Below, one piece after another: positions 2,197-60,764 of a stretch of DNA of 64,000 nucleotides. Below the pieces are notes generated by a model. The model saw only the letters and a program-made list of their open reading frames with translations, made no database searches and was not told where the DNA came from. Position 1 is the stretch's first letter. Each line of letters starts with the position of its first letter. The DNA is from an uncultured Alphaproteobacteria bacterium (lineage in GTDB: Bacteria; Electryoneota; RPQS01). The position numbers were made by a program, and so were the translations under genes. The stretch spans positions 28,309-92,308 of the forward strand of contig CAZPKG010000011.1 in NCBI GenBank assembly GCA_964587105.1, written 5' to 3'.

Positions 2197-2592
2197 ATGA
2201 ACAACACATCTCAACACCCCCTCCTCAAAGCCCAAGCCCTGCTGGCCGACCCGGAAAACCTCGACCTTGATACCCTGTCTCAGCAGTTGGCAGTCGCCGC
2301 CGTCGAAGCTGACGCGCAATCCGCACTCATTTCTCTCTATGAAGATGAACTCCGCCGCGAGCTCCGCGCAAAAGTCGATCTCGCAGGAGCAATCCCCGCA
2401 TGCCCCGATCCCGCACTTGCCTTCACCCTTAGCGGCGAACAACTTCTTTCCGCCCGCCGCCAAGCATCTCTCCACTTCAACCGCGTCTTTCAACTTGCCC
2501 CCATCTCCCGGAGCGCTATTCCCGCAAACTCAGCTCACGTAACCAAAGACCTGCTGCTCCGGTCAGGCCTTGGTACAAACTCCGCTTCGTAA
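2197..2592 (+). CDS. Hypothetical protein (Ala/Leu-rich helical; possible phage scaffold-like)
   Basis: 131-aa ORF directly downstream of an AT-rich promoter-like patch, and first gene of the plus-strand phage head block. No recognisable motif. Confidence 0.45.
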   Translation: MNNTSQHPLLKAQALLADPENLDLDTLSQQLAVAAVEADAQSALISLYEDELRRELRAKVDLAGAIPACPDPALAFTLSGEQLLSARRQASLHFNRVFQLAPISRSAIPANSAHVTKDLLLRSGLGTNSAS

Positions 2593-2604
2593 CTCTCTTC
2601 CGGC

Positions 2605-2660
2605 CTTCCTCCGTTCACGGGGGGATCAGAAGGGGGTCGCCTTCCGCACTCCCCCCTCGA
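2605..2660. repeat. Repeat family CTTCCTCCGTTCACGGGGG... (copy 2)
   Basis: ccttcctccgttcacggggggatcagaagggggtcgccttccgcactcccccctcga. Confidence 0.6.
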
Positions 2661-2777
2661 CGGCACTCGCTCAAAACCCAATCATCTGGTCTTCTCCCGC
2701 AGTTCATTTGTGATGATCGCTCATCACTCGCTCGCGCACGACCAATACTCCAATCGGAGCGATACTCCTTCAAGTCT

Positions 2778-2905
2778 CCCCCAAAAGTTCGCCGCGAACT
2801 TTGGGGGAACTAAGGGGGGCTGCCTTCAAAAAATCAACCTCTAACAAAGAAAGGAAGCACCAAAGCAAAGGCGCATGCGCCAGAGCGAGAGGTGCTTGAC
2901 AAGCA
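2778..2905. repeat. Composite REP element (family-1 hairpin plus ~85-bp tail ending GCGAGAGGTGCTTGACAAGCAC), copy A
   Basis: ccccc-aaaagttcgccgcgaacttt-ggggg-aactaagggggg, then ctgccttcaaaaaatcaacc...gcgccagagcgagaggtgcttgacaagcac. Ends 3 nt before the ATG of the DUF2190-like gene. Sister copy at 7169-7262. Confidence 0.75.
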
Positions 2906-2908
2906 CAC

Positions 2909-3352
2909 ATGGCATCAACCTACAAAGTCAACAACGATGGCGCAGGAGCAAATCTCCTGCTCACCTTCGAAGTAGATACAACTTCAAACAAAGACTTCAC
3001 GTGGACCGACATTGACAATAATCTCGTCGCCGCGACAATGTCTGACAACAACAAGGTCGGCATGGGCTCGGCAGGTTCGCGTCTCATCGGCAAAGTCATC
3101 TCCGTTTCCGACGAACTTGCAGTCGGTACAGCCGTACCCGCACTATGCACCGTGCAAGTCACTGGTGTCGCACGTTTCCTCTACTCAGGAACCGCACCCA
3201 GCGTCGGCAACAAAGTCGAATGTGACGGCACCGGCAAAGTCCGCAAAGCCGTCACTCTCACCGATGTCCCCGCCGGCGGCACCGCTCAACGCGGCTTAGT
3301 CATCGCCGTCGATACCTCCGCCACAACCTGCGATGTCTTACTCGATGCGTAA
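2909..3352 (+). CDS. Phage head-associated protein, DUF2190-like
   Basis: 147 aa, Gly/Val/Thr-rich beta pattern (LIGKVISVSD...VTGVARF...GNKVECDGTGKV...GLVIAV) typical of DUF2190 proteins that precede major capsid genes. Sits immediately upstream of the capsid gene. Confidence 0.4.
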   Translation: MASTYKVNNDGAGANLLLTFEVDTTSNKDFTWTDIDNNLVAATMSDNNKVGMGSAGSRLIGKVISVSDELAVGTAVPALCTVQVTGVARFLYSGTAPSVGNKVECDGTGKVRKAVTLTDVPAGGTAQRGLVIAVDTSATTCDVLLDA

Positions 3353-3369
3353 CTCCGATTTCCCCCCAG

Positions 3370-3400
3370 TCCTCTGGGGGGATTAAGGGGGGTAAAATAC
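3370..3400. repeat. REP-like hairpin, family 1
   Basis: ccccccagtcctctggggggattaagggggg. Confidence 0.8.
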
Positions 3401-3460
3401 CAAATCGCGGCCAACCATTTCAAACAACTGCGTTAGCGCAATCAGTCCAGCGACACGCTG

Positions 3461-3577
3461 GTTGTCATCCTGAAGGCCGCTGCGGCTGAAGGATCTCGTG
3501 GCGGGGTAACGCGCGTCATGCGCTTATCGAATATGAAGCCGCTTGACAAGATCCTTCACTTCGTTCAGGATGACAAC
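3461..3577. mobile_element. 117-bp MITE-like element with terminal inverted repeats GTTGTCATCCTGAAG / CTTCAGGATGACAAC (copy 1)
   Basis: gttgtcatcctgaagg...ttcaggatgacaac. No ORF. Second copy in the same orientation at 4756-4871. The two copies bracket the capsid gene. Confidence 0.7.
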
Positions 3578-3580
3578 ACG

Positions 3581-3620
3581 AATTTCCTATTTCCAATTTC
3601 ACATTTCCAATTTCAAAAAC
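3581..3620 (+). promoter_or_regulatory. ATTTC-repeat leader element abutting the start codon (capsid gene)
   Basis: aatttcctatttccaatttcacatttccaatttcaaaaacATG. Confidence 0.5.
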
Positions 3621-4691
3621 ATGACTCTCGACTTTTCCCAAGCCTACACTCTGCGCGACAAAATCCAAGAACACTCGCGCTCCACTAATCTCGCGCTCTA
3701 TTCCGAAGCGCAAGAGCGCGGCATGACCTTCACTGAGTTGCTCGAAGAACTCGACCCGTCACCGCGTAAGCCCGACGGCCAGCTCGATGCGCCGCTTGAT
3801 GCCTTCGAGCGCCAGCTCTTTCTCGCCGATATCTCTTTTGCCGGCCGCAACGCCACCACGCTCGAACAATTCTTGAGCGGCCCCGGATTGATTCTCGCGC
3901 CTGAATATGTTTCGCGCGAAATCCGCAAAGGCTACAAGATGGTGCAAGACCCCGAAGAACTCGTGGCCGCCATCGTTCCCGAACGCGGACCCACGGTCAC
4001 GCCGCTCTATATCAAAACTGATTTCGCCAAGAAGTCTCAGCGGCGCAACGATAGCGCCGCCTATCCCGTGGTCAAGCTCGCCTATCGTCAAAAAGAGGCG
4101 GGCATGATTGATCGCGGGCGTCAATTTGATTTCAGCTATCGCATCCTGAAAAATCAAAAGCTCGCTGAGTTCCGCGTTTTCCTCTGGTGGATCGGCGCGC
4201 AATTGGCCAACGATGAAATTTCTGAAATCTACAACATCGTCATTAACGGAGACGGCACCAGCCCCGCTCCTTCAAATTCCTTCAACGGAACCGGCGGCAC
4301 GTTTGCCTATACCGACTTGGTTCATCTCGCAATGGCCTTTGATGGTCCCGCTCGTATGACGCATTTGCTCGGCGCCAAATCCGACATCGAAGCCGTCTTG
4401 AAAATCAACGAACTGCAAGATGCGCAAGCCTTTCAAGGTGGAGCATTCAACAACACCGGGGACTACCGCACATTCCTGCCGCTGAATACAAGATTGGTTG
4501 CAGTCGAAGGAGCCACGGCCACCAAGTTCGCCGCGCTCGATCATCGTTTCGCCATTCGTGAATCTGTCGCTCAACCTCTGCTCATCGAAGCCGAAAAAAT
4601 CATCTCGCACAAACTCGAATCAGCCGTCATCTCCAAAGAATCTGTTTACACCATCATGGTTGATGAAGGTATCGCCATGTCAGATTACTAA
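3621..4691 (+). CDS. Phage major capsid protein (HK97-fold family, putative)
   Basis: 356 aa, counting from the internal ATG at 3621 (the upstream part of the listed ORF lies inside a MITE copy). Length, composition and context (DUF2190-like gene upstream, terminase downstream) fit a major capsid protein. Family assignment is by resemblance, not a motif proof. Confidence 0.55.
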   Translation: MTLDFSQAYTLRDKIQEHSRSTNLALYSEAQERGMTFTELLEELDPSPRKPDGQLDAPLDAFERQLFLADISFAGRNATTLEQFLSGPGLILAPEYVSREIRKGYKMVQDPEELVAAIVPERGPTVTPLYIKTDFAKKSQRRNDSAAYPVVKLAYRQKEAGMIDRGRQFDFSYRILKNQKLAEFRVFLWWIGAQLANDEISEIYNIVINGDGTSPAPSNSFNGTGGTFAYTDLVHLAMAFDGPARMTHLLGAKSDIEAVLKINELQDAQAFQGGAFNNTGDYRTFLPLNTRLVAVEGATATKFAALDHRFAIRESVAQPLLIEAEKIISHKLESAVISKESVYTIMVDEGIAMSDY

Positions 4692-4699
4692 GCCAATCT

Positions 4700-4746
4700 G
4701 CTCGCCGAGCGGGGATTAAGCGCGAAGCGCGGTTCCCCGCCGGAAT
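4700..4746. repeat. Repeat family GATTCCGGCGGGGAACCGCTGCGCTTAATCCCCGCTCGGC (reverse orientation)
   Basis: gccgagcggggattaagcgcgaagcgcggttccccgccggaat. Forward copies at 29100-29156 and 60628-60667. Confidence 0.7.
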
Positions 4747-4755
4747 GTACAACGT

Positions 4756-4871
4756 TTTGTCATCCTGAAGCCGCTGCGGCTGAAGGATCTCGTTGCGGGG
4801 TTACGCACGCTATGCGATTACCAAATACGATGCCGCCAAACAAGATCCTTCACTGCGTTCAGGATGACAAC
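4756..4871. mobile_element. MITE-like element with GTTGTCATCCTGAAG TIRs (copy 2)
   Basis: ttgtcatcctgaagccgctgcggctgaaggatctcgttgcgggg...ttcaggatgacaac. About 85% identical to copy 1. Confidence 0.7.
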
Positions 4872-4888
4872 CATTGCCCCTCCGATCT

Positions 4889-4930
4889 CCCCCCAAAGTT
4901 CGCCGCGAACTTTGGGGGGATTAAGGGGGG
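4889..4930. repeat. REP-like hairpin, family 1
   Basis: ccccccaaagttcgccgcgaactttggggggattaagggggg. Same loop as the 2778 copy. Confidence 0.8.
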
Positions 4931-4935
4931 TGGCT

Positions 4936-4966
4936 ATCCTTTCCTATTTCTCATTTCTCATTTCCC
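4936..4966 (+). promoter_or_regulatory. ATTTC-repeat leader element abutting the start codon
   Basis: atcctttcctatttctcatttctcatttcccATG, immediately after a family-1 REP. Confidence 0.5.
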
Positions 4967-5332
4967 ATGAAACCCTCTCTTGCATACGCTCTCGCCAGTC
5001 AACCGTTGGTCTTTCTGACTTTCAGCGGAACACTTGGCACATCATCCGTCTATCTACCCGGCCCCGGCGGAATTGCCGCCGACGGAATTCCCATTCCGTT
5101 CGCGGGCACGCTCTCACAACTGACCGTATTCGACGGTTCAACAACTTTTGCCGATACCGACAACATCACATTTTCCGCTAACAACCGCATCAGCGTATAT
5201 TGCCAAAACATCGGTGGATCGTTCACTGTGAAAGTCCGTTTGAACGGAGTCTCCACAACACTCCAAACGGCGTCTGTCCCGCTTAGTTCGACTCTCCAAG
5301 TCACCGTCGGTTTTGCCATTAACCGCGTATAA
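4967..5332 (+). CDS. Hypothetical protein in phage head module (beta-rich)
   Basis: 121-aa ORF immediately preceded by a REP plus ATTTC-repeat leader. No recognisable family. Confidence 0.4.
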   Translation: MKPSLAYALASQPLVFLTFSGTLGTSSVYLPGPGGIAADGIPIPFAGTLSQLTVFDGSTTFADTDNITFSANNRISVYCQNIGGSFTVKVRLNGVSTTLQTASVPLSSTLQVTVGFAINRV

Positions 5333-5341
5333 GGAGCGCAC

Positions 5342-6166
5342 ATGTCTTTCACATCTCTTGCTATCGTCCGCAAACATCTTGTTGCGGGCAACTTGCCTTC
5401 TCAACGAATTGAAGACGTCCGCGTTACGCTAAACGGGATTGCCGACGTATCTCTGCCGCACTTCAATTTGCTCCAAGACTTCGCGGTCGTGAAGCGGCTC
5501 GCTTCTGACAAAGCGACATATGAAACCGGTGTGCTGCTGACCAATGAAGATGAAATCAGTCTTTCCAACAAGAATCTCGAAAGAGGCAGCGTCGTCGTCG
5601 CAAATGACCTCGCCTTAAGCGAAATCTTCGACGAGGAGTTTGATTACCGCGTAAACCACGAATCCGGTTCGGTCAAACGGCTCGCTACTGGTGCGATACC
5701 AAATTCATTTCCCGCTGTGGTTTGGTATAACTACTATGAGGTTTTTGAACCCTCCATTGACTACGAATTGGACTACGTTGCCGGAGCAATCCGCCGAGTT
5801 TCCGGAAGTAACATTCCCGACGGAGCGAACATCCTTGTGGACTACACCGTCGCGCAAGGCGCCGCCGAAAACGATCTGATCGAGCAATCGATCATTGAAG
5901 CTGAAGACATAATCGTGCGGGCACTCCGCGAAGGTTACAACTCAGCTTCGACCGATCAAGGACTAAAATCCGGTGCGACATACCTGACTCTCGCGATTGT
6001 CGCGCGCGGAATGGCGGCCTTGATGCTTACTCGCAATGTGGGCAGCGACGCAAATTCCCGCGCCCGCGAATGGCAGCAGCTTTCCGACAAATGGAGTGGC
6101 GCCGCTTGGAGCGTGCTTGCGTCCTTTGTCACTCCGCATTTCATGCACTCTAACACTATCGAATAA
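5342..6166 (+). CDS. Hypothetical phage structural/assembly protein
   Basis: 274-aa ORF tightly packed between the capsid-side genes and the terminase. Its stop at 6164-6166 is followed 1 nt later by the ATG of the next ORF. Confidence 0.45.
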   Translation: MSFTSLAIVRKHLVAGNLPSQRIEDVRVTLNGIADVSLPHFNLLQDFAVVKRLASDKATYETGVLLTNEDEISLSNKNLERGSVVVANDLALSEIFDEEFDYRVNHESGSVKRLATGAIPNSFPAVVWYNYYEVFEPSIDYELDYVAGAIRRVSGSNIPDGANILVDYTVAQGAAENDLIEQSIIEAEDIIVRALREGYNSASTDQGLKSGATYLTLAIVARGMAALMLTRNVGSDANSRAREWQQLSDKWSGAAWSVLASFVTPHFMHSNTIE

Positions 6167-6167
6167 A

Positions 6168-6371
6168 ATGGACGTCTTCTCCGAAGAGAGCAAACAGCAA
6201 GTTCTCGAAACTCTGTTCAAAATTGCAACGGACAACAAAAGCGCAAGCGTCCCGGCAATCAAACTCTATCTCGAACTCGCAAATGAACGTCCTTCCGCCG
6301 AAACACTTACCACTGAACAGGCTCTGGAAATCCTAAGAGAAGCACAATCAGAAAATGAGTCGTCGTCCTGA
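6168..6371 (+). CDS. Small helical protein, candidate terminase small subunit
   Basis: 67 aa (MDVFSEESKQQVLETLFKIATDNK...) directly upstream of the large terminase. Assignment by position only. Confidence 0.3.
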   Translation: MDVFSEESKQQVLETLFKIATDNKSASVPAIKLYLELANERPSAETLTTEQALEILREAQSENESSS

Positions 6372-6396
6372 ACAAAGTGAAAGTCCTCTCTGGTTT

Positions 6397-6424
6397 CCCC
6401 CCGCGAGCGGAGGGATTAAGGGGG
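6397..6424. repeat. REP-like hairpin, family 1 (degenerate)
   Basis: ccccccgcgagcggagggattaaggggg, followed by cttccgaaaaatttt as in the composite tail. Confidence 0.7.
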
Positions 6425-6506
6425 CTTCCGAAAAATTTTCCACTCCACCACTACAAAACATCCGCGTCAGCGCAATCAGTCCAGCGGCACGCTGGTTCTT
6501 CGCGGC

Positions 6507-6525
6507 GGCACCCGCTGCGGGTGCC
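6507..6525. repeat. Perfect palindrome GGCACCCGCTGCGGGTGCC (family 3)
   Basis: 9-bp stem with a 1-nt loop. Copies at 21267, 36849 and 59701. Confidence 0.8.
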
Positions 6526-6570
6526 CCATGCGCAACAATCGATTCTCCCTTCAGGTCTCCACCAAGCACA

Positions 6571-8007
6571 ATGACAAAAGACCAATTCCAAGAACTCCTC
6601 CGCTGTACTCGAAATCCGTGGTATTTTCTCACGAACTATGTCAAAACCCAAGACCCTGTCAAAGGAACCTCGGCCTATCCTGATTTCGATTACTTATGTG
6701 AGTTGACATATCTTGCTCTCACTCAACGCTATCTGCTTGTTCCCAAATCAAGACAGATGATGGTCACATGGAGTATGGTTAGCCTGTTCGTATGGCGGGC
6801 GCTATTCAAACAGCCCGGTGTCTATCTTTTCCTTTCGCGCAACGAGCGTTGTGCCGAAGAGCTTTTGGACAGAGCGCGTTTTATCATAACGCATTTGCCC
6901 GAGTTCATGCGGCCTCAACTAACAACAAACAACAAATCCGAAATTGAATTCGGTGGCTTGCACTCGCGCCTGCTTTCGCTTCCGGCAACTCCCGACGGCC
7001 CGCGAATGTACTCACCCACTGCCGTCTTTTGGGATGAGATGGCCTTCACTCCGTTTGATTCGCAAATTTGGACTGCCCTGAAACCGGCTATCAGCAGCGG
7101 CGGATCGTTCGTAGGCGTATCATCTTCCGGCGGTGCACAAAATCTTTTCGCAAAGTTCTGCTCTGATTCCCCCCTGCTTGCGGGGGGGCAAGGGGGGGTG
7201 CTTCCGAAAAAAGCCAACCAACAATCCAAAGAATCAGCGCCAGCGCGAGAGGTGCTTAACAAGCACTTTCACATCCATAAAATCCACTACACCAATCACC
7301 CCGACCGCAACAACGAAGAATGGCGACTCAGCGAATCGCGCGGCCTGTCACAAAGCCAATGGGATAGAGAACAGGAAATCTCGTTTGAGTCCTTTGATGA
7401 TCTGGTCTATTCCGAGTTCGATCCGGTTGTGCATCTGCTCAAAGAGGAATTTCATCCGCGCAAAGAGTGGCCGCTCTATCGCGCAATTGATTTCGGCTTT
7501 CGCAAGCCGTTTGCATTGTGGATTCAGAAACTCCCTTCCGGTGAATATGTCGTGTTTGACGAATGGGAAGGGAGAGATTGCACAACCGAAGCCATGTATG
7601 CTTCTATCACTCGCACGGACATCCTCTTCGGTCTCAAGGAGTCTGATTACCTATGGTCCGCCTGTGACCCTGCCGGAGCCGCCGCGCAAGACAGCGGGAT
7701 TTCACCGGTGGATTACCTTGCTCGCAACGGCATGAAATTACGTTATCGTCCGTCCCGCATTTTGCCCGGCGTCGAATGCGTGAAAGCTTCGTTGCGTGAC
7801 GCCGCCGGAAGAGTTTCGCTCTTTTTCTCCCCACGCTGCCAAAAACTCATCCAAGACATGCGAAGTTATAAATGGAACGCCGCCAATGACGAACCCATCA
7901 AAGACGGCGTCAGCGATCACTCTCTCGATGCGCTCCGCTATTTCTTCGTCAACCTTGAAGGCTCCGAAGATCGAGCTCCCGCCGCGCCGCGCATTGCACG
8001 GCTATAA
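6571..8007 (+). CDS. terL: Phage terminase large subunit (Terminase_6-like), with an in-frame repeat-element insertion
   Basis: Deviant Walker A KSRQMMVT and Walker B VFWDEMAF. SSSGG ATPase motif III. RNaseH-like nuclease acidic residues (AIDFGF, CDPAG, DHSLDALRY). True start is the ATG at 6571, because the upstream part of the listed ORF is translated repeat DNA. A ~38-aa insert at 7166-7262 is encoded by a REP composite element. Confidence 0.8.
   Translation: MTKDQFQELLRCTRNPWYFLTNYVKTQDPVKGTSAYPDFDYLCELTYLALTQRYLLVPKSRQMMVTWSMVSLFVWRALFKQPGVYLFLSRNERCAEELLDRARFIITHLPEFMRPQLTTNNKSEIEFGGLHSRLLSLPATPDGPRMYSPTAVFWDEMAFTPFDSQIWTALKPAISSGGSFVGVSSSGGAQNLFAKFCSDSPLLAGGQGGVLPKKANQQSKESAPAREVLNKHFHIHKIHYTNHPDRNNEEWRLSESRGLSQSQWDREQEISFESFDDLVYSEFDPVVHLLKEEFHPRKEWPLYRAIDFGFRKPFALWIQKLPSGEYVVFDEWEGRDCTTEAMYASITRTDILFGLKESDYLWSACDPAGAAAQDSGISPVDYLARNGMKLRYRPSRILPGVECVKASLRDAAGRVSLFFSPRCQKLIQDMRSYKWNAANDEPIKDGVSDHSLDALRYFFVNLEGSEDRAPAAPRIARL
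7169..7262. repeat. Composite REP element, copy B, inserted in-frame inside the large terminase ORF
   Basis: cccccctgcttgcggggggg-caaggggggg, then tgcttccgaaaaaagccaacc...gcgccagcgcgagaggtgcttaacaagcac. Colinear with the 2778-2905 copy. Translated as ...CSDSPLLAGGQGGVLPKKANQQSKESAPAREVLNK... without stops. Confidence 0.8.
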
Positions 8008-10723: not shown

Positions 10724-13336
10724 TTAACGCGTCACCGGATTATTCAGCGGGACAGGGGGCTGATTAATCTGAAGCATCGGAACGTCGCCACCCGGATTCT
10801 GAATTGCGATATTACTGCAATCCACGGTCAGGACATAGACGATTTCATTCGACGGATCCGGCGCATAGAACGAGTAGTTCATCAATCCACCCGGAACATA
10901 GCCACTGACCATCTGCGTGTATGTGGCAGGGAAAACCGCATTCGGATTTGCTGACCACCACAAATGCACAACGCCTTCCGGCTGCCACCATCTCAGTGTG
11001 TAAGCATCGGCGATGTTAGGATACAATTCAATGGTCACGCTGTCCGGCGAAAGGCACTGTCCGCCCAAGCAGAACGCGAGATTAGTTCCTGTGTCAAAGG
11101 GAGGTTGGCCGACCCAGTAACCGTTTGCGGTTGAGCCGTAGCCGGTGATCGCATATGACCAATAAAAGTTGCAGCCACTGCCTTGTTCAGCAATTTGCAC
11201 GTCACCGTTCAGAATCGTGCACGGCGGATTGAGTTCCGTCGAGTACTCGAGAATCCGGTAAGTGTTCCATTGCAGATACTTCGGAGTTCCTGTCAAAGTG
11301 ACGTTGTAAACCTGCGAAGTGTTGTTCACACTGTCAAAGAACGTGATTTGGAAGTTGTGCGGATCCGTGTTGCAGGCGCCCTGCTCAGCAAACACACCCC
11401 AGAACCTGATCGTACCAATCGGCCCTCCGACCAAGTAATCTTCGGCATTGAAGAAACCTTGATCCCCATCGGAGAGATTTGCATTCCACGGTTCATCGGG
11501 AAGCATCGGCAACTGACTGAGATAAGCGCCCGCCGTCGCGCAGGTCGGACGAGTGAAGCACGCGCCGCTTGAGCACGGTTCCATGTACGTCCACACTCCT
11601 CCGAGGCTGTCGCAGATTCCTTGTGACAATTGATTACAGCCGGGATCATCCGGATTGCCGTAGCAGCACGAGCCGATACATTCGAAAACATTCAACACAA
11701 ACGGACCACAGCCGGATGACCAGGCTTCCACCGTCAAGTAGTAGATGCCCGGATTTAGATGGACACAGTTGATCGTGGAAAGTCCGACGCCGCCGCAGCC
11801 GTCGTCGTCCTGTGCGATGACGCCGCCGTTACACGAACCTGACAAATAGATGTAGCTGTCCCAAATGCTGTCGTCGTTGCAAGTCGAAAATGTCCATTCA
11901 CCGGCATAAGGAATGTTCACGGCGTAAGTGTAGTCTTCGCTCGGACGCAAGGTGTTGTCGTCACCCGCGCCGCAAGTGTTCCAAGCTGCCGAACCCGGAG
12001 CTTGGAAATATGAATCAACTTGGCAACCGCTACACGGAACCAGATCAACACGAGCGCGATAGTCACGCGGAGTGTTTAGGCCGGTTTGGCTGGCGGGAAG
12101 AACGATGAGTGAGTATGTGCCAGGCTGGAGACACTGTGTTAAAAACGTGGCGGTCGAGCACGAGTATTGCCAGTCGTATGGACCGGAAACAATGGAGTAA
12201 GGACAGGAACCGGGAAAAACGTACATCTGTGATGCGAACTCCGCGTTGATCGTCAGCGCGAGCGAACACGGTTCAAAAATCGTAAAACGATAGGAGTCCA
12301 CGTCCCGGAAGGGCGAGTTAAAACTGGTGAGATACGTAAATCCGCGGCCGCATACAGTCTGGAACGGCAAAATGTCTTGCCACGATTCCGTGCCGCCGTA
12401 AAAGCCATCCTGACAAGAGCCGTTGCAATCTACCACCTCAAAACCGGGGCCGGGAACTTCAGCACACTCGAGAACATCGCTGGGCTGGCAAACAACATCA
12501 CAGTTGTCCGTGATATTGAGCACGTAGTTGCCACTGGCAACGTCAAAACCGTCTACGATGATGTAGTACGTCTGCCCGCCATTCAAGATGACCGAAACAA
12601 ACGACTGCAAACTAAAGTAATCGTCATTGCAGGCCACTTGAGTCGTACCGGGGCAACCGCCATTGGTATTGACATGAAGATAGGTGTCGTAGGACGAGCC
12701 TAACAACGAGATATTGTACGTCTGAGTCACTTGCGGAGTAAACTCATAAACAACATCGCTTGCATCACTAAAAGCGCAGTCCGAAATGGGGTTGTAGTTA
12801 TTGGCGAAGCCAACTGTCGTGCCGCCGTCCGAGTAAGGAACTCCACCGATAACCGTTCCCGGGCAAACATCATTGCCTTGATCGAGCGGATTGCGCTCAC
12901 GGTTCACGGGACGCTGTGCGTAAAGTTCATTCAACTGCTCTTTCAGATTCGCGAAGGTGACTTCGTCAACTCCCTGAAGGGACATTCCGCCGGACAGATG
13001 AAACTCCAACTCTTTGATCTGAGCTTCAAGCGGGGTCAATTCCGTTGGGCGAATCACCGCGCCGGGAGCAAAGCCTCCCTCGCTCTGAAACGCCTGCAAG
13101 TCCGCCGGGACTTTGCTCGCATGACCTTTAACGGACGGAATCAGCTCGCGAATCCGAGCCGTCCAGGCCGGATCGGGCGTCTGGCCTGTAGCCTTTGCCT
13201 TAGCAATCAGGTCTTCAAGCTTAGCAATTTCAGCCTTCGGGTCGCTCAATGTGAGCGGCACCGTCTGGCTTGGTCCAGCAGCAATAGCGTAGAATGCACA
13301 ACATAGGACAACAATCACAACTGACATTCTCTTCAT
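10724..13336 (-). CDS. Giant secreted Cys-rich multidomain protein, paralog A2
   Basis: Start moved to MKRMSVV (13336), which has the same RBS context (ccaatGGAGAtgatATG) as A1. Very similar to A1 and A3 at the N-terminal module and the C-terminal Fn3-like end. Confidence 0.8.
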   Translation of the reverse strand: MKRMSVVIVVLCCAFYAIAAGPSQTVPLTLSDPKAEIAKLEDLIAKAKATGQTPDPAWTARIRELIPSVKGHASKVPADLQAFQSEGGFAPGAVIRPTELTPLEAQIKELEFHLSGGMSLQGVDEVTFANLKEQLNELYAQRPVNRERNPLDQGNDVCPGTVIGGVPYSDGGTTVGFANNYNPISDCAFSDASDVVYEFTPQVTQTYNISLLGSSYDTYLHVNTNGGCPGTTQVACNDDYFSLQSFVSVILNGGQTYYIIVDGFDVASGNYVLNITDNCDVVCQPSDVLECAEVPGPGFEVVDCNGSCQDGFYGGTESWQDILPFQTVCGRGFTYLTSFNSPFRDVDSYRFTIFEPCSLALTINAEFASQMYVFPGSCPYSIVSGPYDWQYSCSTATFLTQCLQPGTYSLIVLPASQTGLNTPRDYRARVDLVPCSGCQVDSYFQAPGSAAWNTCGAGDDNTLRPSEDYTYAVNIPYAGEWTFSTCNDDSIWDSYIYLSGSCNGGVIAQDDDGCGGVGLSTINCVHLNPGIYYLTVEAWSSGCGPFVLNVFECIGSCCYGNPDDPGCNQLSQGICDSLGGVWTYMEPCSSGACFTRPTCATAGAYLSQLPMLPDEPWNANLSDGDQGFFNAEDYLVGGPIGTIRFWGVFAEQGACNTDPHNFQITFFDSVNNTSQVYNVTLTGTPKYLQWNTYRILEYSTELNPPCTILNGDVQIAEQGSGCNFYWSYAITGYGSTANGYWVGQPPFDTGTNLAFCLGGQCLSPDSVTIELYPNIADAYTLRWWQPEGVVHLWWSANPNAVFPATYTQMVSGYVPGGLMNYSFYAPDPSNEIVYVLTVDCSNIAIQNPGGDVPMLQINQPPVPLNNPVTR

Positions 13337-13442
13337 ATCATCTCCATTGGTTAGGGTATCAGATAAGATAACATAATATGATGTCATTTGTCAACAATTA
13401 GAGCATTCACACATATAGAGCATTCACACATAATAAAACAAA

Positions 13443-27660: not shown

Positions 27661-28914
27661 CTACTTCAGCAAAACGACTTTCTGTGTTGCGTTAAAGGTT
27701 GGTGTTTCGAGTTTAATAAAATATGTTCCGGACGACAGACCGTTGCCATTAAATTGCATCTGATGACTTCCTGCCGCGAGTTTGCCGTCGTACAATGTAT
27801 TTGTCATTCTCCCCAGCACATCATAGACCACCAACCGTCCCGTGACTTCGCGCGGCAAATCGAAACTGATGTTCGCCGTGTTGTTGAACGGGTTGGGGTA
27901 GATGGGATGGAGAGAGAATTGGGAGACGACGGTGTTGGGAGTCTCAATAATCGGTAAGGCGGTCGAAATATCAAAGATCTCGACTCCGAATAAATCGTTG
28001 ACATAGACAATATTGTCATCGAGAATCAATTGGTGGCTGTACCAGCTCAAGCGATGCCAGCCGACGTTTTGAAAATTCGCAGGATCAGCAACGCTGTAAA
28101 TTTGCAGACCCGGCAACCCTTTTGCCGTCGCAGCCACAACATCGCCGACAGCCTGAATATCCGTGAACATCACATCGGTTTGATGGAAGTCGCCAATGAG
28201 CAAAGGTGTTGTCGGCTCAGAGATGTCAATAACCTCAATTCGACCCCAATAGGTTGTGGTGAACGCGCGATTACCGGAAACCGAGATGTCATAGGCCCCA
28301 TACGAAGTCCGATAGACACCGACTTCAGTTGGGATTGTGATGTCACTGATGTCAAGGATTCGCACGCCACTGTCAGCACAAGCGACGTAAGCGTAGTTGC
28401 CGACGACGTCAACATCTACCGGATAGCTACTCCAGAAATCTCCCGGCGGATCATACGTACCAACAAGTTCCGGCGCGGTTGGAATGCTAAGGTCGAGAAT
28501 GGACAGAGTCGTGGTGCCAGCCAAAAAAGCATGTGTGCCGAAAACTTTGACTTTCCAACTTGAAACATCCGAGACTCCGACTTCAACCGGTGCCGCAGGA
28601 TTCACGATGCTGATGATGTGAAGGCCATCTGATGCGCCGGAGACATAGGCGTAGTCACCCAATAGCGCTACGTCAAATAACGATTCGTCCGATTCCAGAA
28701 AGGAAATCTCTGTCCATTCCGCCGGTTCGCGGGCATCCAAGACGTGCAAACCCTGACCGCCTTCCGCCGCGTAAATGAATCCGTCGCGAACGGCAATTTG
28801 CCCCAACTCCGGCCCGCTCGCAATGCTAATCCGTGACAGCAGGCTCGTATTCAAACTATCCTGACCAAAGACGAAGAGTGGCAGACAAAGCAAAGCAAAA
28901 ATGAAGCTGCGCAT
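27661..28914 (-). CDS. LVIVD-repeat beta-propeller protein with T9SS CTD
   Basis: Signal peptide MRSFIFALLCLPLFVFGQ. LVIVD-type repeats (YAYVA..GL.I.DIS.P..P). Its CTD is near-identical to those of 21298-22152 and 26038-27489. Confidence 0.8.
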   Translation of the reverse strand: MRSFIFALLCLPLFVFGQDSLNTSLLSRISIASGPELGQIAVRDGFIYAAEGGQGLHVLDAREPAEWTEISFLESDESLFDVALLGDYAYVSGASDGLHIISIVNPAAPVEVGVSDVSSWKVKVFGTHAFLAGTTTLSILDLSIPTAPELVGTYDPPGDFWSSYPVDVDVVGNYAYVACADSGVRILDISDITIPTEVGVYRTSYGAYDISVSGNRAFTTTYWGRIEVIDISEPTTPLLIGDFHQTDVMFTDIQAVGDVVAATAKGLPGLQIYSVADPANFQNVGWHRLSWYSHQLILDDNIVYVNDLFGVEIFDISTALPIIETPNTVVSQFSLHPIYPNPFNNTANISFDLPREVTGRLVVYDVLGRMTNTLYDGKLAAGSHQMQFNGNGLSSGTYFIKLETPTFNATQKVVLLK

Positions 28915-36848: not shown

Positions 36849-36867
36849 GGCACCCGCAGCGGGTGCC
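36849..36867. repeat. Palindrome GGCACCCGCAGCGGGTGCC (family 3)
   Basis: Perfect palindrome in the intergenic region. Confidence 0.8.
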
Positions 36868-36882
36868 GCCGCGAAAACAAAA

Positions 36883-51086: not shown

Positions 51087-51464
51087 CTACTTCTTCCACC
51101 CGAACTTTTTAAAATCCACTTTGTCTTTGTCGTTGAACTCGACGCCTTCTTGCTCTAAGATTTTGCGTTGAATATTGGCGGCCATTGGATTACTGCGAAT
51201 GGAAATGTGGCCTTGCGCATTGATGACTCGCTGCCATGGCACATTCTCGATATCGCTTTCGCTCAAAGCATGTAAGGCATAACCGACCATGCGGGCGTGT
51301 CGTTCAAGGCCGGCTACTCGTGCGACTTGGCCGTAACTTGCCACTTTGCCGCGCGGGATCTTTTTCACCGTGGCGTAGATGCGTTTGTAAAGAGATTCGG
51401 GGCCGCTCTTGACCCCCCCTAACCCCCCCGCGCGACGCGGAGGGGGACCAGATTTAGACGTCAT
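51087..51464 (-). CDS. Alkyltransferase-like protein (ATL; MGMT-family DNA-binding domain lacking the catalytic Cys)
   Basis: VPWQRVINAQG corresponds to the Ogt PCHRV motif with Trp replacing Cys, as in ATL proteins. IPRGKVASYGQVA helix-turn-helix region. The first ~17 codons are the translation of a REP element. Confidence 0.7.
   Translation of the reverse strand: MTSKSGPPPRRAGGLGGVKSGPESLYKRIYATVKKIPRGKVASYGQVARVAGLERHARMVGYALHALSESDIENVPWQRVINAQGHISIRSNPMAANIQRKILEQEGVEFNDKDKVDFKKFGWKK
51413..51446. repeat. REP-like hairpin, family 1 (reverse orientation), lies within ATL coding sequence
   Basis: ccccccctaacccccccgcgcgacgcggaggggg. Confidence 0.75.
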
Positions 51465-52350
51465 AGTTCAAGAGTTTGTAGATCATTAGAGCGCGGACGG
51501 TCAGTTCGCGGTCTTGAGCATTTTCTTCGAGCGGGTAGTACCACGAGAGATGCGCGGGAGTTTCTTCGAGGTCGAAGTGCCACATGCCGTCGGCGTCCTG
51601 CTGGACTTCCAGTTCTTCATAAAGCCATTGCAGATGCGGAACACCGGCCACGACTCCGGCGCGCGCACCGTGCTCCAAATCGAATAACATGCGCACGGGT
51701 GCGGCAAGGTATTTGTCTTTATCGGGAATCGTGAAGCGGGTGTTTTCCGGAAGCAGAACTTCGGGTTGCGTCTCGACTTCATTCAAGAGTTTGGTGAGTA
51801 GGGCGCGCTTGTTCAGAACTTCATTGACGTTCGGCTGCCACCAGACCATCGCATTATAGGCCGGAACGGTCGGAGCGGGAGATTTCTTGTCGGAAAACCA
51901 ATGCTGCCATTCGAGTTTTACAATTTCCAAATAGGATTCGAGCAGAGGGTGCGTGCCGCGCGTGGCGCGAGCAAGCATGTGCAAACAGACGTCCCGCACA
52001 AGCAAGCGTTGATTGGATTGCAACTCCCAAGTTACGTTTTCTTGCGCGAGTGTGGGAAGCACAACAAAATCCAAAGCGCGTTTGACACAACCGTGATCTT
52101 CGGCTCCGGCCTCGCACAGCCACAACACTGAGGCCGCTGTGTGCGAAAGTCTATCATTGAAGGAACCGTTTGCCAATTGCTCAGTGGCGAGTTTCACGAC
52201 GCGCGGATGTTTCAAAACGGCGGCTTGGGCTGACGAAGTTTCAATCCAACTCTCATCACGGCCTAACACGTCGCGCAAAATTCGGTAACGAAGTAAGGGG
52301 CCGCTCTCTTTGAAGAGCTGTTGGAATGATGGTGGGAGATCGGGGATCAC
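51454..52350 (-). CDS. Hypothetical protein (GTG start), overlaps ATL gene start by 11 nt
   Basis: 298-aa ORF preceded by an ATTTC-repeat leader and a REP element. No recognised domain. Confidence 0.5.
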   Translation of the reverse strand: MIPDLPPSFQQLFKESGPLLRYRILRDVLGRDESWIETSSAQAAVLKHPRVVKLATEQLANGSFNDRLSHTAASVLWLCEAGAEDHGCVKRALDFVVLPTLAQENVTWELQSNQRLLVRDVCLHMLARATRGTHPLLESYLEIVKLEWQHWFSDKKSPAPTVPAYNAMVWWQPNVNEVLNKRALLTKLLNEVETQPEVLLPENTRFTIPDKDKYLAAPVRMLFDLEHGARAGVVAGVPHLQWLYEELEVQQDADGMWHFDLEETPAHLSWYYPLEENAQDRELTVRALMIYKLLNYDV

Positions 52351-52353
52351 TTG

Positions 52354-52390
52354 AGGAAAATAGGAAATGAGAAATTAGAAATAGGAAAGC
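52354..52390 (-). promoter_or_regulatory. ATTTC-repeat leader element abutting a GTG start (minus strand)
   Basis: Minus-strand reading: ctttcctatttctaatttctcatttcctattttcctcaaGTG. A REP lies directly upstream. Confidence 0.5.
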
Positions 52391-52395
52391 GGAAG

Positions 52396-52436
52396 CCCCC
52401 CTTAATCCCCCCAAATACGCAGACGAATTTGGGGGG
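52396..52436. repeat. REP-like hairpin, family 1 (reverse orientation)
   Basis: ccccccttaatccccccaaatacgcagacgaatttgggggg. Confidence 0.8.
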
Positions 52437-52476
52437 AGACCTGAAGCAATATGCGAAGTACTTGTTGAAAATGCAA

Positions 52477-58895: not shown

Positions 58896-59663
58896 CTAAG
58901 ATAACGTCAGCACCGGCCCGACGGTGCGTTGAGCGGTTAAGTGGACGGGAATTTCGGGGTTGTTGTCGAGCGCTGTGCGGGCGCAATCGTGGGCGAGCAG
59001 CGGGTGGTTATTTTCTTCGGACATGTGTGCGAGCACGACATGTTTCATGTTCTTGTTGGTGCAGTCGCGCAATACGTTAGCGGTTTGACGATTGGAGAGG
59101 TGGCCAGTGTTTCCCGCGATACGAATCTTGAGCAATTCGGGATAGGGGCCGGTGCGGAGCATCTCTTCATCGTGATTGCTCTCGATAACGGCGATCGTAC
59201 TTTCGGTGAAGGCTTGATGTAGGTCTTCAGGAACTTCACCCAAGTCCGTGGCCACTGTAATGACCTCATCCTCCACGTGAATTTGATAGGCCACGGGCTC
59301 GGCGGCATCGTGCAAGATCGGAAACGCGCGGACATTAAACGGGCCGACGTCAACCGCATGACCGTTAATGGGAAAAGCCTTTTGCATGCGCATGAAGCCG
59401 GGCGAAAGTGCTTTCAAGGTTCCGGCGGCAGCATACACCGGGATCGAAACCTTCTTCAACAAACTATCCAAGCCGCGCGTATGATCCGTATGCTCGTGCG
59501 TGATGAAGACCGCGTTGATGTTTTGCGGTTGCTCGCCGATCTGCTGTAACGCAAATATCAATCCGCGAATGCCTAAACCCGCATCGATGAGGATGCGGGT
59601 TTCTCCTTTGCGGAGCAGAAGTGCGTTGGCTTTGGAGCCTGAAGCAAGGACGGAAAGTTGCAA
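58896..59663 (-). CDS. MBL-fold metallo-hydrolase (YycJ-like), TTG start
   Basis: HxHxDH motif in FITHEHTDHTRG. Later DAAEP and His residues typical of the metallo-beta-lactamase fold. ATTTC-repeat leader upstream. Confidence 0.75.
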   Translation of the reverse strand: MQLSVLASGSKANALLLRKGETRILIDAGLGIRGLIFALQQIGEQPQNINAVFITHEHTDHTRGLDSLLKKVSIPVYAAAGTLKALSPGFMRMQKAFPINGHAVDVGPFNVRAFPILHDAAEPVAYQIHVEDEVITVATDLGEVPEDLHQAFTESTIAVIESNHDEEMLRTGPYPELLKIRIAGNTGHLSNRQTANVLRDCTNKNMKHVVLAHMSEENNHPLLAHDCARTALDNNPEIPVHLTAQRTVGPVLTLS

Positions 59664-59697
59664 AATTAGAAATTAGAAATAGGAAATGAGAAAGCAG
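59664..59697 (-). promoter_or_regulatory. ATTTC-repeat leader element abutting a TTG start (minus strand)
   Basis: Minus-strand reading: ctttctcatttcctatttctaatttctaattttgcaacTTG. A family-3 palindrome lies directly upstream. Confidence 0.5.
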
Positions 59698-59700
59698 AGG

Positions 59701-59719
59701 GGCACCCGCAGCGGGTGCC
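59701..59719. repeat. Palindrome GGCACCCGCAGCGGGTGCC (family 3)
   Basis: Perfect palindrome adjacent to an ATTTC-repeat leader. Confidence 0.8.
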
Positions 59720-60263: not shown

Positions 60264-60581
60264 CTATCTTTTGTACGGATTGCCTGTGTAAGCCGCGATG
60301 ATGCAGAGCAGATGCAGAATTAATCCGGGGACAATTAGTAACCAGTAGCCCACAGCAACGGCGGCCATCCAGAGCAAGCCGCGAAGTATCTTGCCGCGAT
60401 AGATTTGACCGACACCGGGAAAGAAGAAACTCAAGACAGCCGCAATGCCCGGATGCCACAAGCGTTCGCGTGGAGGTTGAACAACCACGACGGGGCGGTC
60501 GATATCACCGATACCCGAACCGCATTTGGGGCAGAAATTAGAATTTGCCGCGAGGGTGTTTCCGCAAACGGTGCAGTGCAA
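60264..60581 (-). CDS. Zinc-ribbon small membrane protein (TM2-like), TTG start
   Basis: CTVCGN...CPKCG zinc ribbon followed by two hydrophobic helices (GVGQIYRGKILRGLLWMAAVAVGYWLLIVPGLILHLLCIIAAY). ATTTC-repeat leader upstream. Confidence 0.5.
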   Translation of the reverse strand: MHCTVCGNTLAANSNFCPKCGSGIGDIDRPVVVVQPPRERLWHPGIAAVLSFFFPGVGQIYRGKILRGLLWMAAVAVGYWLLIVPGLILHLLCIIAAYTGNPYKR

Positions 60582-60625
60582 AGTTTAAATAGAAAATAGA
60601 AAATAGAAAATTGAAAATTGAAAAG
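60582..60625 (-). promoter_or_regulatory. ATTTC/TTTTC-repeat leader element abutting a TTG start (minus strand)
   Basis: Minus-strand reading: ttttcaattttcaattttctattttctattttctatttaaacTTTG. Confidence 0.45.
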
Positions 60626-60627
60626 CG

Positions 60628-60700
60628 GATTCCGGCGGGGAACCGCTGCGCTTAATCCCCGCTCGGCAGACGCAAGGAAGCGGATTCCGGCGGGGAACCA
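60628..60700. repeat. Repeat family GATTCCGGCGGGGAACCGCTGCGCTTAATCCCCGCTCGGC (1.5 tandem copies)
   Basis: gattccggcggggaaccgctgcgcttaatccccgctcggc, followed by a partial second copy gcggattccggcggggaaccagc. Confidence 0.7.
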
Positions 60701-60764
60701 GCGGGCGGATTGCCATCCGCCCCTACACAAACCTCACTCTGCGGACATATTGCATGCGGAGGAA

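Follow-up and report, generated by a model that had tools for sequence, protein, structure and literature searches.

The 64,000-nucleotide stretch analyzed here (the window; positions 28,309 to 92,308 of contig CAZPKG010000011.1) carries five tandem arrays of imperfect heptamers, each of which lies immediately 5' of a start codon. The downstream genes encode a major head (capsid) protein, a 121-residue protein of a conserved head-gene cluster, a 298-residue protein that gave no Pfam match, a metallo-β-lactamase (MBL)-fold hydrolase and a zinc-ribbon protein, and are thus functionally unrelated or of no known function. From its sequence the window genome appears to be a Calditrichota/KSB1-like member of the Fibrobacterota-Chlorobiota-Bacteroidota (FCB) group. 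The sources of hydrolase and capsid homologues assign them to Calditrichota, KSB1, LCP-89 or just "bacterium", and many proteins of the window have a type IX secretion system (T9SS) sorting domain.

Each array is made of four to six 7-nt units of the form TTTCYNA (TTTTCWA in array 5), the units seen being TTTCCTA, TTTCTCA, TTTCTAA, TTTCCAA and TTTTCTA, and units of the same array vary at two to three of the seven positions. The arrays are 30-44 nt long and T-rich and all five lack G on the sense strand; the start codon supplies the first G 3' of the array at every site. A search of the whole window with the pattern TTTCYNATTTCYNATTTC, which represents three consecutive units and was allowed up to two mismatches, gave 13 overlapping matches versus 0.13 expected from shuffled sequences, and all 13 were within the five arrays. 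A first-pass annotation made from the letters of the window had reported T-rich strings 5' of five start codons. All five are present as it described them. Tandem Repeats Finder (TRF) assigned a period of 7 to all five arrays (array 5 scored 62), and neither TRF nor relaxed two-unit searches detected another TTTCYNA-type array in the window. The sole other period-7 repeat in the window is a CAACAAA run inside the terminase gene. A "weaker version" reported upstream of the cyclophilin gene consists of only about two units followed by AAGGAA, a Shine-Dalgarno (SD)-like site. Rfam covariance models gave no matches at the gathering score across the whole window, and the arrays do not have the attributes of miniature inverted-repeat transposable elements (MITEs) or repetitive extragenic palindromic (REP) elements: being G-free they have no self-complementarity, they lack terminal inverted repeats and their 3' ends differ.

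The open reading frame (ORF) lists took the first NTG after a stop codon as the start and hence the starts were checked independently against orthologues. In related contigs the orthologues of all five genes start at the identical codon although the sequence upstream is unlike that of the window at four of the five sites, and we therefore take the starts to be real. The exception is the 298-residue gene, where the closest relative retains a diverged copy of both REP and array. The N-termini are also consistent with the Pfam and PHROG alignments. If each array is placed uniformly and in random orientation within its own spacer (78-275 nt), a sense-strand array ending no more than 10 nt from the start would occur at all five sites with a probability of about 1e-7 (arithmetic from the coordinates). 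TTG and GTG starts had been described as frequent among the array-bearing genes. Such starts are present at three of the five sites, but are mostly properties of the genes rather than of the arrays, as the TTG of the hydrolase gene and the GTG of the 298-residue gene also occur in relatives that have no array.

None of the five array-bearing leaders contains an SD site. An SD-like motif precedes 43% of 179 genes and ATG is the start codon of 77%, and the length of the G-free run 5' of the start is bimodally distributed. An SD was found in none of the eight genes having a G-free leader of at least 25 nt (these leaders are 30-40 nt), versus the 43% of all 179. Two of the eight leaders are non-repeat sequences, and thus the G-free leader is the common denominator and the arrays are its extreme form. 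The arrays are 4.5% G and 50% T whereas other leaders are 21% G. These data uphold the earlier view that the array-bearing genes lack a GGAG-type SD, although its counterpart, that the giant paralogues of the window have GGAG, holds only in part: some do, but a clear GGAG is seen in only part of the family. When 130-nt stretches at the five sites were folded, both the minimum free energy and the centroid structures predicted that array and start codon are essentially unpaired at every site, with a stable REP hairpin 5' of the array at four sites and only a weak hairpin at site 1. By this prediction all the arrays offer at least the 16 or so single-stranded nucleotides 5' of the start or SD expected of a ribosome standby site. 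Two other roles for the arrays were considered and rejected. Pairing with the anti-SD does not fit because the arrays have the same sense as the 16S rRNA 3' tail, not its complement (by reasoning only, as the window has no 16S gene), and an insulator with stop codons in all frames (three shifted TAA codons) does not fit because array 1 is stop-free and an ORF reads through it.

The arrays are modules apart from the REP elements, as had been proposed, since they lie behind four hairpin types in the window and behind none at two sites in one relative (L127 9453 and 10015). The four upstream hairpin types and the variable array ends also exclude the array as part of a single MITE. The further statement that a different REP or MITE type lies upstream each time was incorrect: sites 2 and 3 share the CCCCCC..GGGGGG-ATTAAGGGGGG type. 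At site 5 a segment of about 176 nt, composed of two hairpin/REP modules plus the array, has been inserted precisely at the start codon of the zinc-ribbon gene, with (A/T)TGCA at both borders. In the closest relative, L122 (9100-9140), the site has an ATG, no REP and no array. The TGCA duplication round this composite insertion is only a 4-nt hint of a target-site duplication. Note that the old ATG remains as the start of a 10-codon ORF, whereas the new TTG start is at the 3' border. The window contains eleven REP copies that end GGGG(A/G)TTA(A/G)GGGGGG (positions 150, 2805, 3378, 4916, 6411, 51413, 52396, 61380, 62086, 62488 and 63467), usually behind a CCCCCC..GGGGGG hairpin and in most cases pointing the same way as the genes around them, plus at least three other REP-like families (GTCATCCTGAAG..GAAGGATC; GGTTCCCCGCCGGAAT; GGCACCCGCTGCGGGTGCC, at 59701 and 36850).

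Table 1 Arrays, array-bearing genes, adjoining elements and related loci. Positions refer to the window unless an L number, our label for another sequence, is given. RDD-MBL denotes the junction between the RDD and MBL hydrolase genes.
Feature	Position	Strand	Description
Array 1	3581..3620	+	TTTCCTA TTTCCAA TTTCACA TTTCCAA TTTCAAAAAC; abuts ATG 3621; predicted unpaired
Array 2	4934..4966	+	(cc)TTTCCTA TTTCTCA TTTCTCA TTTCCC; abuts ATG 4967; predicted unpaired
Array 3	52351..52389	-	TTTCCTA TTTCTAA TTTCTCA TTTCCTA TTTTCCTCAA; abuts GTG 52350; predicted unpaired
Array 4	59664..59693	-	TTTCTCA TTTCCTA TTTCTAA TTTCTAA TT; abuts TTG 59663
Array 5	60582..60625	-	TTTTCAA x2, TTTTCTA x3, TTTAAACT; abuts TTG 60581
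Major head (capsid) protein gene	3621..4691	+	PHROG 3922, E 4.5e-37; N-terminus identical in L252, confirming the ATG
121-aa gene of conserved head-gene cluster	4967..5332	+	orthologues in L252, L253, L255
298-aa gene	51454..52350	-	GTG start kept in L122, L124, L129
MBL-fold hydrolase gene	58896..59663	-	TTG start kept in L124, L127, L129; GTG in L122
Zinc-ribbon protein gene	60264..60581	-	TTG start here; ATG in L122, L123, L127
REP-like element GATCCTTCACTTCGTTCAGGATGAC	3550..3574	+	just 5' of array 1; second copy at about 4845-4869
REP, 15-bp-stem hairpin CCCCCCAAAGTTCG..CGAACTTTGGGGGG then ATTAAGGGGGG	4888..4930	+	5' of array 2; z -3.98
REP, type as at site 2	52396..52437	-	5' of array 3
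Hairpin GGCACCCGCTGCGGGTGCC, dispersed REP	59701..59719	-	5' of array 4; second copy at about 36850-36868
Composite insertion of about 176 nt: two hairpin/REP modules and array 5	60582..60757	-	absent in L122, L123, L127 (alignment)
RDD-MBL, window			hairpin + TTTCTCA TTTCCTA TTTCTAA TTTCTAA
RDD-MBL, L124			REP + TTCTGAC TTCCGAC TTCCGAC TTTATCA TTCATCC TTTATCC
RDD-MBL, L127			array alone: TGATTTCC TCTTTCC TCTTTCC TCTTT
RDD-MBL, L122			degenerate CT-rich string
RDD-MBL, L129			single base (TAA c TTG)
Relatives L122, L252			GCA_964269295.1; 94% amino-acid identity to window
Relatives L124, L127, L129, L253/L254, L255			various metagenome-assembled genomes; 75-79% amino-acid identity to window
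Architecture A in relatives	L122 20188, L124 9954, L127 10015, L127 17015, L129 4918, L129 17799		array abuts start, no SD
Architecture B in relatives	L124 9366, L127 9453, L129 8289, L254 9399, L255 9960, L122 12205		array, then SD, then ATG
Phage contigs with arrays	L324 7043-7078, 7506-7544		also L269, L296, L298, L299, L312, L327, L343, L365

Syntenic relatives were retrieved by exact-protein look-up and together with the window amount to 210 kb of the clade. A single detector was applied to periods 4-12 (the census of arrays given below used a slightly laxer threshold). At period 7 it found one to six arrays per sequence, at periods 8-12 none anywhere and at period 6 at most two short matches per sequence, with none in three of four relatives. 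The census gave 28 period-7 arrays, 24 of which are intergenic. In 18 of these 24 the G-poor strand is the sense strand of the next gene and the array ends within 22 nt of the start of that gene. In spacers between tandem genes 17 of 20 arrays are sense-oriented, or about 12 versus 3 once orthologous sites are counted once. Two architectures recur. In architecture A the array abuts the start codon, often TTG or GTG, and there is no SD; the five window sites and six sites in relatives are of this type. In architecture B an AGGAGG, GAGG or AAGAGG motif separates the array from the ATG, such that in these relatives the array lies directly 5' of the SD, the classical position of an S1 enhancer.

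Comparison of orthologous sites shows that the repeats turn over. The junction between the RDD and hydrolase genes differs in all five genomes compared, from a hairpin plus array to a single base. This one-nucleotide separation in L129 argues that the two genes are co-transcribed, and so speaks against a promoter-proximal element. At site 3 a REP plus array is common to the window and L122, the arrays being of equal length and T-rich, with one G in L122. The two arrays are about 75% identical by column count versus 92% for the whole alignment, and divergence faster than that of the flanks argues against sequence-specific reading. The leaders of sites 1 and 2 are G-free but not repetitive in L252; those of L255 contain TTCATCN heptamers. 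In an IMG/VR sequence related to the capsid locus (L251 1186-1215), (GGATGAA)4 comes right after the capsid stop codon; read on the opposite strand this is TTCATCC, the unit used in L255.

Heptamer families of this kind are dispersed, genome-specific and typical of the Calditrichota/KSB1-like lineage. The longest string shared between arrays averages 9.8 nt when both belong to one genome, 5.9 nt when they come from different genomes and 6.1 nt in shuffled sequences. For example, a 19-nt string is common to window arrays 3 and 4, and ATTTCC begins all three (TCTTTCC)n arrays of L127. Sharing among sites of one genome suggests that arrays are copied from site to site or have a genome-specific reader; independent local slippage does not account for it. 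Close strains were also compared: L127 and L128 (99.88% identical) show no gaps over four arrays, L122 and L123 (97.4% identical) show none in their arrays and L001 is identical to the window. Phase variation was rejected on these grounds, as no array indel was seen among strains that are 97.4-99.9% identical, although the sample is small.

Motif scans were also made of public genome, metagenome and viral contig collections, and the figures from these scans hold among the matches listed. Most TTTCNNA arrays were perfect heptamer microsatellites from many phyla, including Acidobacteriota, Verrucomicrobiota, Planctomycetota, Patescibacteria and Bacteroidota, and none of the listed genome and metagenome loci was related to the window. 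As a set the listed arrays show no association with ORF starts. A sharp exception to this is a phage family of about 50% GC, represented by at least about nine related contigs. In the phage collection its portal protein is nearest to those of unannotated phages from human faeces (47-62% identity); relatives that have a name are mostly Bacteroides, Flavobacterium and Porphyromonas phages, with about 27-28% identity in those listed. In these contigs TTTCTAA TTTCTCA TTTCTAA TTTCTCA TTAAAT.. fills the gap between the terminase stop codon and the head-tail adaptor ATG and then that between the adaptor stop codon and the portal ATG, in both cases with no SD. The 28-nt core of the array is 28/28 identical in L299 and L324 whereas the coding flanks differ by about 17% (by eye), and indels alter the short stretch between array and ATG. 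By sequence, the phage arrays are the window's units in the window's architecture, placed in head genes of a phage whose host phylum is probably related. Two other loci were seen in passing. In a viral contig of 68% GC (L316 3821-3868) a (TTTCCAA)5 array runs into the ATG of a 373-residue ORF, a further isolated case of such an array at a start codon. L180 (3368-6470) contains about 41 CRISPR-like repeats spaced about 77 nt apart; the repeat includes TTTCCTATTTCCGATTTC, but the locus is unrelated to the heptamer arrays.

Position, strand, G-free composition, absence of an SD, predicted single-strandedness, operon context, turnover and within-genome families all follow from the sequences or their predicted folding. 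The reading of them that we favor, to which we give a probability of about one half on the basis of sequence and predicted structure, is that the dispersed heptamer repeat serves as an unstructured, SD-independent translation leader or standby site. The arrays would be transcribed as leaders or as intercistronic spacers of operons. Because its sense strand is G-free, the array RNA is unable to fold on itself and would leave a 30-44-nt single-stranded tract of pyrimidines and A, bounded 5' by a stable REP hairpin or the preceding stop codon and 3' by the start codon. On this tract the 30S subunit would land or stand by, binding through ribosomal protein S1 or another single-strand-binding protein having an oligonucleotide-binding (OB) fold or RNA recognition motif (RRM), and initiation could then proceed without SD pairing even at UUG or GUG. 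In this way the arrays may bring back the expression of genes that lost translational coupling when a REP was inserted. Spread would be by copying between sites of one genome. The 7-nt period most likely derives from the process that generates the repeats, given the heptamer bias of bacterial simple repeats, although the register may instead reflect one cold-shock-type OB fold per heptamer. A cold-shock domain spans about 7 nt and prefers T-rich heptamers that contain a C. Of the three mechanisms put forward in the first-pass annotation (U-rich S1-type translation leader, regulator or small RNA site, promoter-proximal element), the translation leader fits best, the arrays being G-free, predicted unpaired and located at the start or, in relatives, 5' of the SD.

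A fuller version of the translation-leader reading, which we regard as improbable in its entirety, holds that the array is a portable, lineage-specific initiation cassette. Each heptamer would be read by one OB-fold domain of S1 or a cold-shock protein (Csp), or by one RRM domain, that co-evolves with the unit of its genome. The cassette would be copied between sites, even into a start codon (ATG to TTG, zinc-ribbon gene), would permit SD-independent initiation at AUG, GUG and UUG behind REP hairpins and would be exploited by FCB-group phages for their head genes. RbpB, the Bacteroides RRM protein, was considered as the reader and set aside since cross-linking and immunoprecipitation data show single-strand binding but no pyrimidine-heptamer motif; its involvement remains speculation.

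Several observations weigh against a translation leader. We infer both the transcription of the arrays and their effect on initiation, and to our knowledge S1 has no 7-nt register. In the closest relative the array is missing from site 5 and a G-free leader that is not a repeat takes its place at site 1, which indicates that the repeat itself is dispensable. In the clade three arrays within tandem-gene spacers are antisense (L127 5469; L255 5445 and 9902), two arrays next to a start in divergent spacers are purine-rich in the sense strand (L127 6776; L129 7339) and one lies between convergent genes (L127 17414). Among the listed TTTCNNA arrays of the public collections, 27/108 are near ORF starts in sense and 31/100 in antisense orientation, compared with 28% of random positions, and only about 3 of about 100 have the start codon as the first G.

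The dispensability of the arrays, their exceptions in orientation and position, the faster divergence of the orthologous pair and the lack of any link to starts among the listed arrays of many phyla would all be expected if the arrays were neutral or selfish heptamer simple sequence repeats (SSRs). These would arise by slippage or copy-paste, and the start-adjacent pattern would be a survivorship filter, the repeats surviving only in non-coding DNA and in the orientation that makes neither RNA structure nor a spurious SD. Heptameric SSRs are over-represented in many bacteria, and slippage related to the polymerase footprint has been proposed, according to the account in PMC4692102 (citing Mrazek 2007). 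We nevertheless consider this explanation rather unlikely. Mere tolerance does not account for arrays at the extreme 3' ends of 78-275-nt spacers at all five sites (about 1e-7 for uniform placement) nor for the same gene start re-acquiring or keeping a heptamer array in three diverged genomes. The phage arrays are 28/28 identical in L299 despite the many coding-flank differences, and imperfect units together with zero indels between strains speak against ongoing slippage.

That strict conservation of the phage copies, together with genome-specific families having long identical strings (ATTTCC in L127; 19 nt in window arrays 3 and 4), could instead suggest an operator, recognized as RNA or DNA by a genome-specific factor that co-regulates the array genes and co-evolves with its sites. 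The candidates would be a Csp-like protein, an RRM-type Rbp, a CsrA-like protein, a small RNA or a ToxR-like DNA binder of heptad repeats, and analogous proposals have been made for the TAACTGA and Nostoc heptamer repeats near start codons discussed below. A regulon of this kind seems quite improbable to us, however, as the downstream genes have unrelated functions, two to three of the seven positions vary among units of one array, no candidate factor is encoded in the window and the pyrimidine-only sequence lacks the GGA motifs needed by CsrA. The sole orthologous array pair has drifted by about 25% (column count), faster than its flanks, yet stayed T-rich and G-poor, and this disfavors the small RNA or regulator site of the first-pass annotation as well. 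Its suggestion that the strings couple phage head genes to host genes fares no better, since the unit changes between genomes at the same gene and two of the five arrays are missing in the closest relative.

A DNA-level transcription signal, either a promoter (possibly giving a leaderless mRNA) or the U-tract of the intrinsic terminator of the upstream gene, is very improbable: sites 1, 3 and 4 do have TAATTT/TATTTC hexamers 6-8 nt 5' of the start codon, TAnnnT-like hexamers recur in the units and a hairpin plus T-rich tail was flagged as terminator-like at sites 2, 3 and 4, but there is no promoter-like hexamer pair (-35/-10, 16-18-nt spacer) in or near any array, the terminator-like matches are weak and no commoner than in shuffled sequences, some arrays have no hairpin before them and some lie within tight operons, and the SD, where present, lies 3' of the array. 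Canonical promoters and terminators exist elsewhere in the genome. A textbook terminator adjoins another copy of the site 4 REP and is followed by a G-poor non-repeat leader with GGAG, and TTGACA/TAnnnT promoters are visible elsewhere in the window, whereas no sigma-70-like hexamers are found in or around the arrays, which leaves the proposed promoter-proximal element without its expected signals. Three specific forms were rejected. Leaderless mRNAs from the -10-like hexamers of the units would have inconsistent spacing and no -35, and an mRNA starting with UUG would be unusual; the Bacteroidetes -7 motif TAnnTTTG matches site 4 only, and only by using the start codon itself; and a terminator U-tract is at odds with matches that do not exceed those in shuffled sequences and with arrays that have no hairpin.

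Some other features of the window were noted. The head genes (2197-8007) are in the order 131-residue protein, 147-residue protein, capsid, 121-residue protein, 274-residue protein and terminase. They are kept in the same order, with 57-94% amino-acid identity, in many chromosomal metagenome-assembled genomes labelled Calditrichota, KSB1 or LCP-89 (L252, L253/L254 and L255 included), although about 8 kb of T9SS cargo genes interrupts the cluster in L253/L254. The cluster is flanked by neither tail nor lysis genes. From its sequence context the cluster looks like a domesticated, vertically inherited element, possibly similar to a gene transfer agent, rather than a live prophage. Next to it (1911-2196) is a pair of small divergent ORFs with a common inverted promoter-like segment (ttgacaaacggactcttttattatacattgtacctgt), possibly a genetic switch of the phage type. 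Roughly a dozen paralogous genes encoding proteins of 737-1109 residues, mostly on the minus strand, occupy 8058-55595; three of the proteins were tested against Pfam, of which two gave no match and one matched a Trypsin_2 domain only. Several of these genes are preceded by clear TTGACA-type promoters plus GGAG sites, and a perfect 17-nt tandem duplication (TAGAGCATTCACACATA x2; 13399-13432) lies just upstream of the gene for the 887-residue paralogue (10724-13387). The sense strands of the window are G-poor, with a GC skew of -0.2 at 1-4 kb that becomes positive at 36-64 kb.

The arrays bring SD-independent initiation in the FCB group and the commonness of heptamer repeats in bacterial non-coding DNA together in one compact case. 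Here the repeat provides a 30-44-nt G-free tract in place of an SD at validated AUG, GUG and UUG starts, recurs with other units at the same gene in relatives and reappears at head-gene junctions of phages. Should the proposed role be correct, the arrays are a natural, portable SD-free leader. Should they have no function, they are a clean example of selection filtering where simple repeats persist.

Among known elements, REPs, bacterial interspersed mosaic elements and MITEs resemble the arrays in being dispersed, intergenic, oriented with transcription and present in operon spacers, and the arrays often adjoin REPs. Unlike those elements, the arrays have no hairpin, terminal inverted repeats or conserved ends. 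The hmw genes of Haemophilus influenzae have phase-variable 7-bp repeats upstream. SSRs in 5' untranslated regions are counted among intergenic phase-variable repeats (PMC12721329). Such SSRs share with the arrays a tandem heptamer 5' of the start codon (they lie between promoter and start and can modulate expression) but are perfect, long and polymorphic in copy number, whereas the arrays are imperfect and show no indel between strains.

S1-dependent A/U-rich enhancers were reportedly described by Boni in 1991, and Zhang and Deutscher in 1992 are said to have found a U-run upstream of the UUG-start rnd gene. A/U-rich enhancers located 5' of the SD stimulate translation (PMC2176067), and CA or AU tails that are free of G and 16-18 nt long serve as standby sites beside structured ribosome-binding sites (PMC5934652). 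The arrays are similar in being a G-poor tract, here predicted to be single-stranded, that lies 5' of the start or SD and beside a stable hairpin. The enhancers and standby sites function with a weak or absent SD and with non-AUG starts, the optimal unstructured length being at least 16-18 nt. They differ from the arrays in that known S1 enhancers are neither tandem heptamers nor dispersed repeat families and have no 7-nt register.

The cyanobacterial STRR heptamer repeats are reportedly due to Mazel (1990). Like the arrays, the STRR and Nostoc repeats are tandem heptamers dispersed in non-coding DNA, and a role in translation has been suspected for them. In Nostoc several heptamer repeats overlap a start codon or are located no more than 30 nt from one, although the reporter data were inconclusive (bioRxiv 10.1101/2022.06.06.494920), and the G-rich heptamers of Xanthomonas and Nostoc vary in length and sequence between the same genes of related species (PMC4692102). 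Many of the STRR/Nostoc units (CCCCAAT, GGGGAYT, GACYAAT, TTCAAAA) are G-rich and capable of forming G-quadruplexes, in contrast to the G-free units of the window. Moreover, STRR/Nostoc arrays are often much longer, and consistent abutment of start codons across a genome has not been reported for them.

The closest parallel is with the TAACTGA repeats of marine Beggiatoaceae, of which one genome contains 169 sets, mostly in forward orientation (MacGregor 2015, PMC4679880). These sets most often end 1 nt before the start codon, about 90% of the genes lack an SD, and S1, Csp and CsrA were proposed as readers (PMC4679880). CspB, as summarised there, binds as one protein per heptamer and prefers TTCTTTT (PMC4679880). 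A literature search on the word TAACTGA returned no experimental follow-up. Both kinds of repeat are 7-nt tandem direct repeats with related heptamers interspersed (2-6 copies of TAACTGA, 4-6 here). Both are intergenic and forward and end a few nucleotides from a start (here 5/5 in the window and 18/24 of the intergenic clade arrays), mostly in the absence of an SD; the minority of clade arrays that precede an SD is comparable to the approximately 10% of BOGUAY sets that do so. In both cases the downstream genes are functionally unrelated and S1 or Csp proteins have been proposed as readers. The differences are that TAACTGA contains G and stop codons, whereas the TTTCYNA unit is pyrimidine-rich and G-free, so that the sequences themselves do not agree, and that the present phylum is FCB/Calditrichota-like rather than Gammaproteobacteria, with arrays often located behind REP hairpins. 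TAACTGA is the one dominant unit of its genome; here five sets occur in 64 kb and the relatives have within-genome families. Here, too, the unit family changes between related genomes at orthologous sites, and there is a phage parallel. On these comparisons of sequence and position, we conclude that the TTTCYNA arrays are the same kind of element as the TAACTGA repeats but not of the same family.

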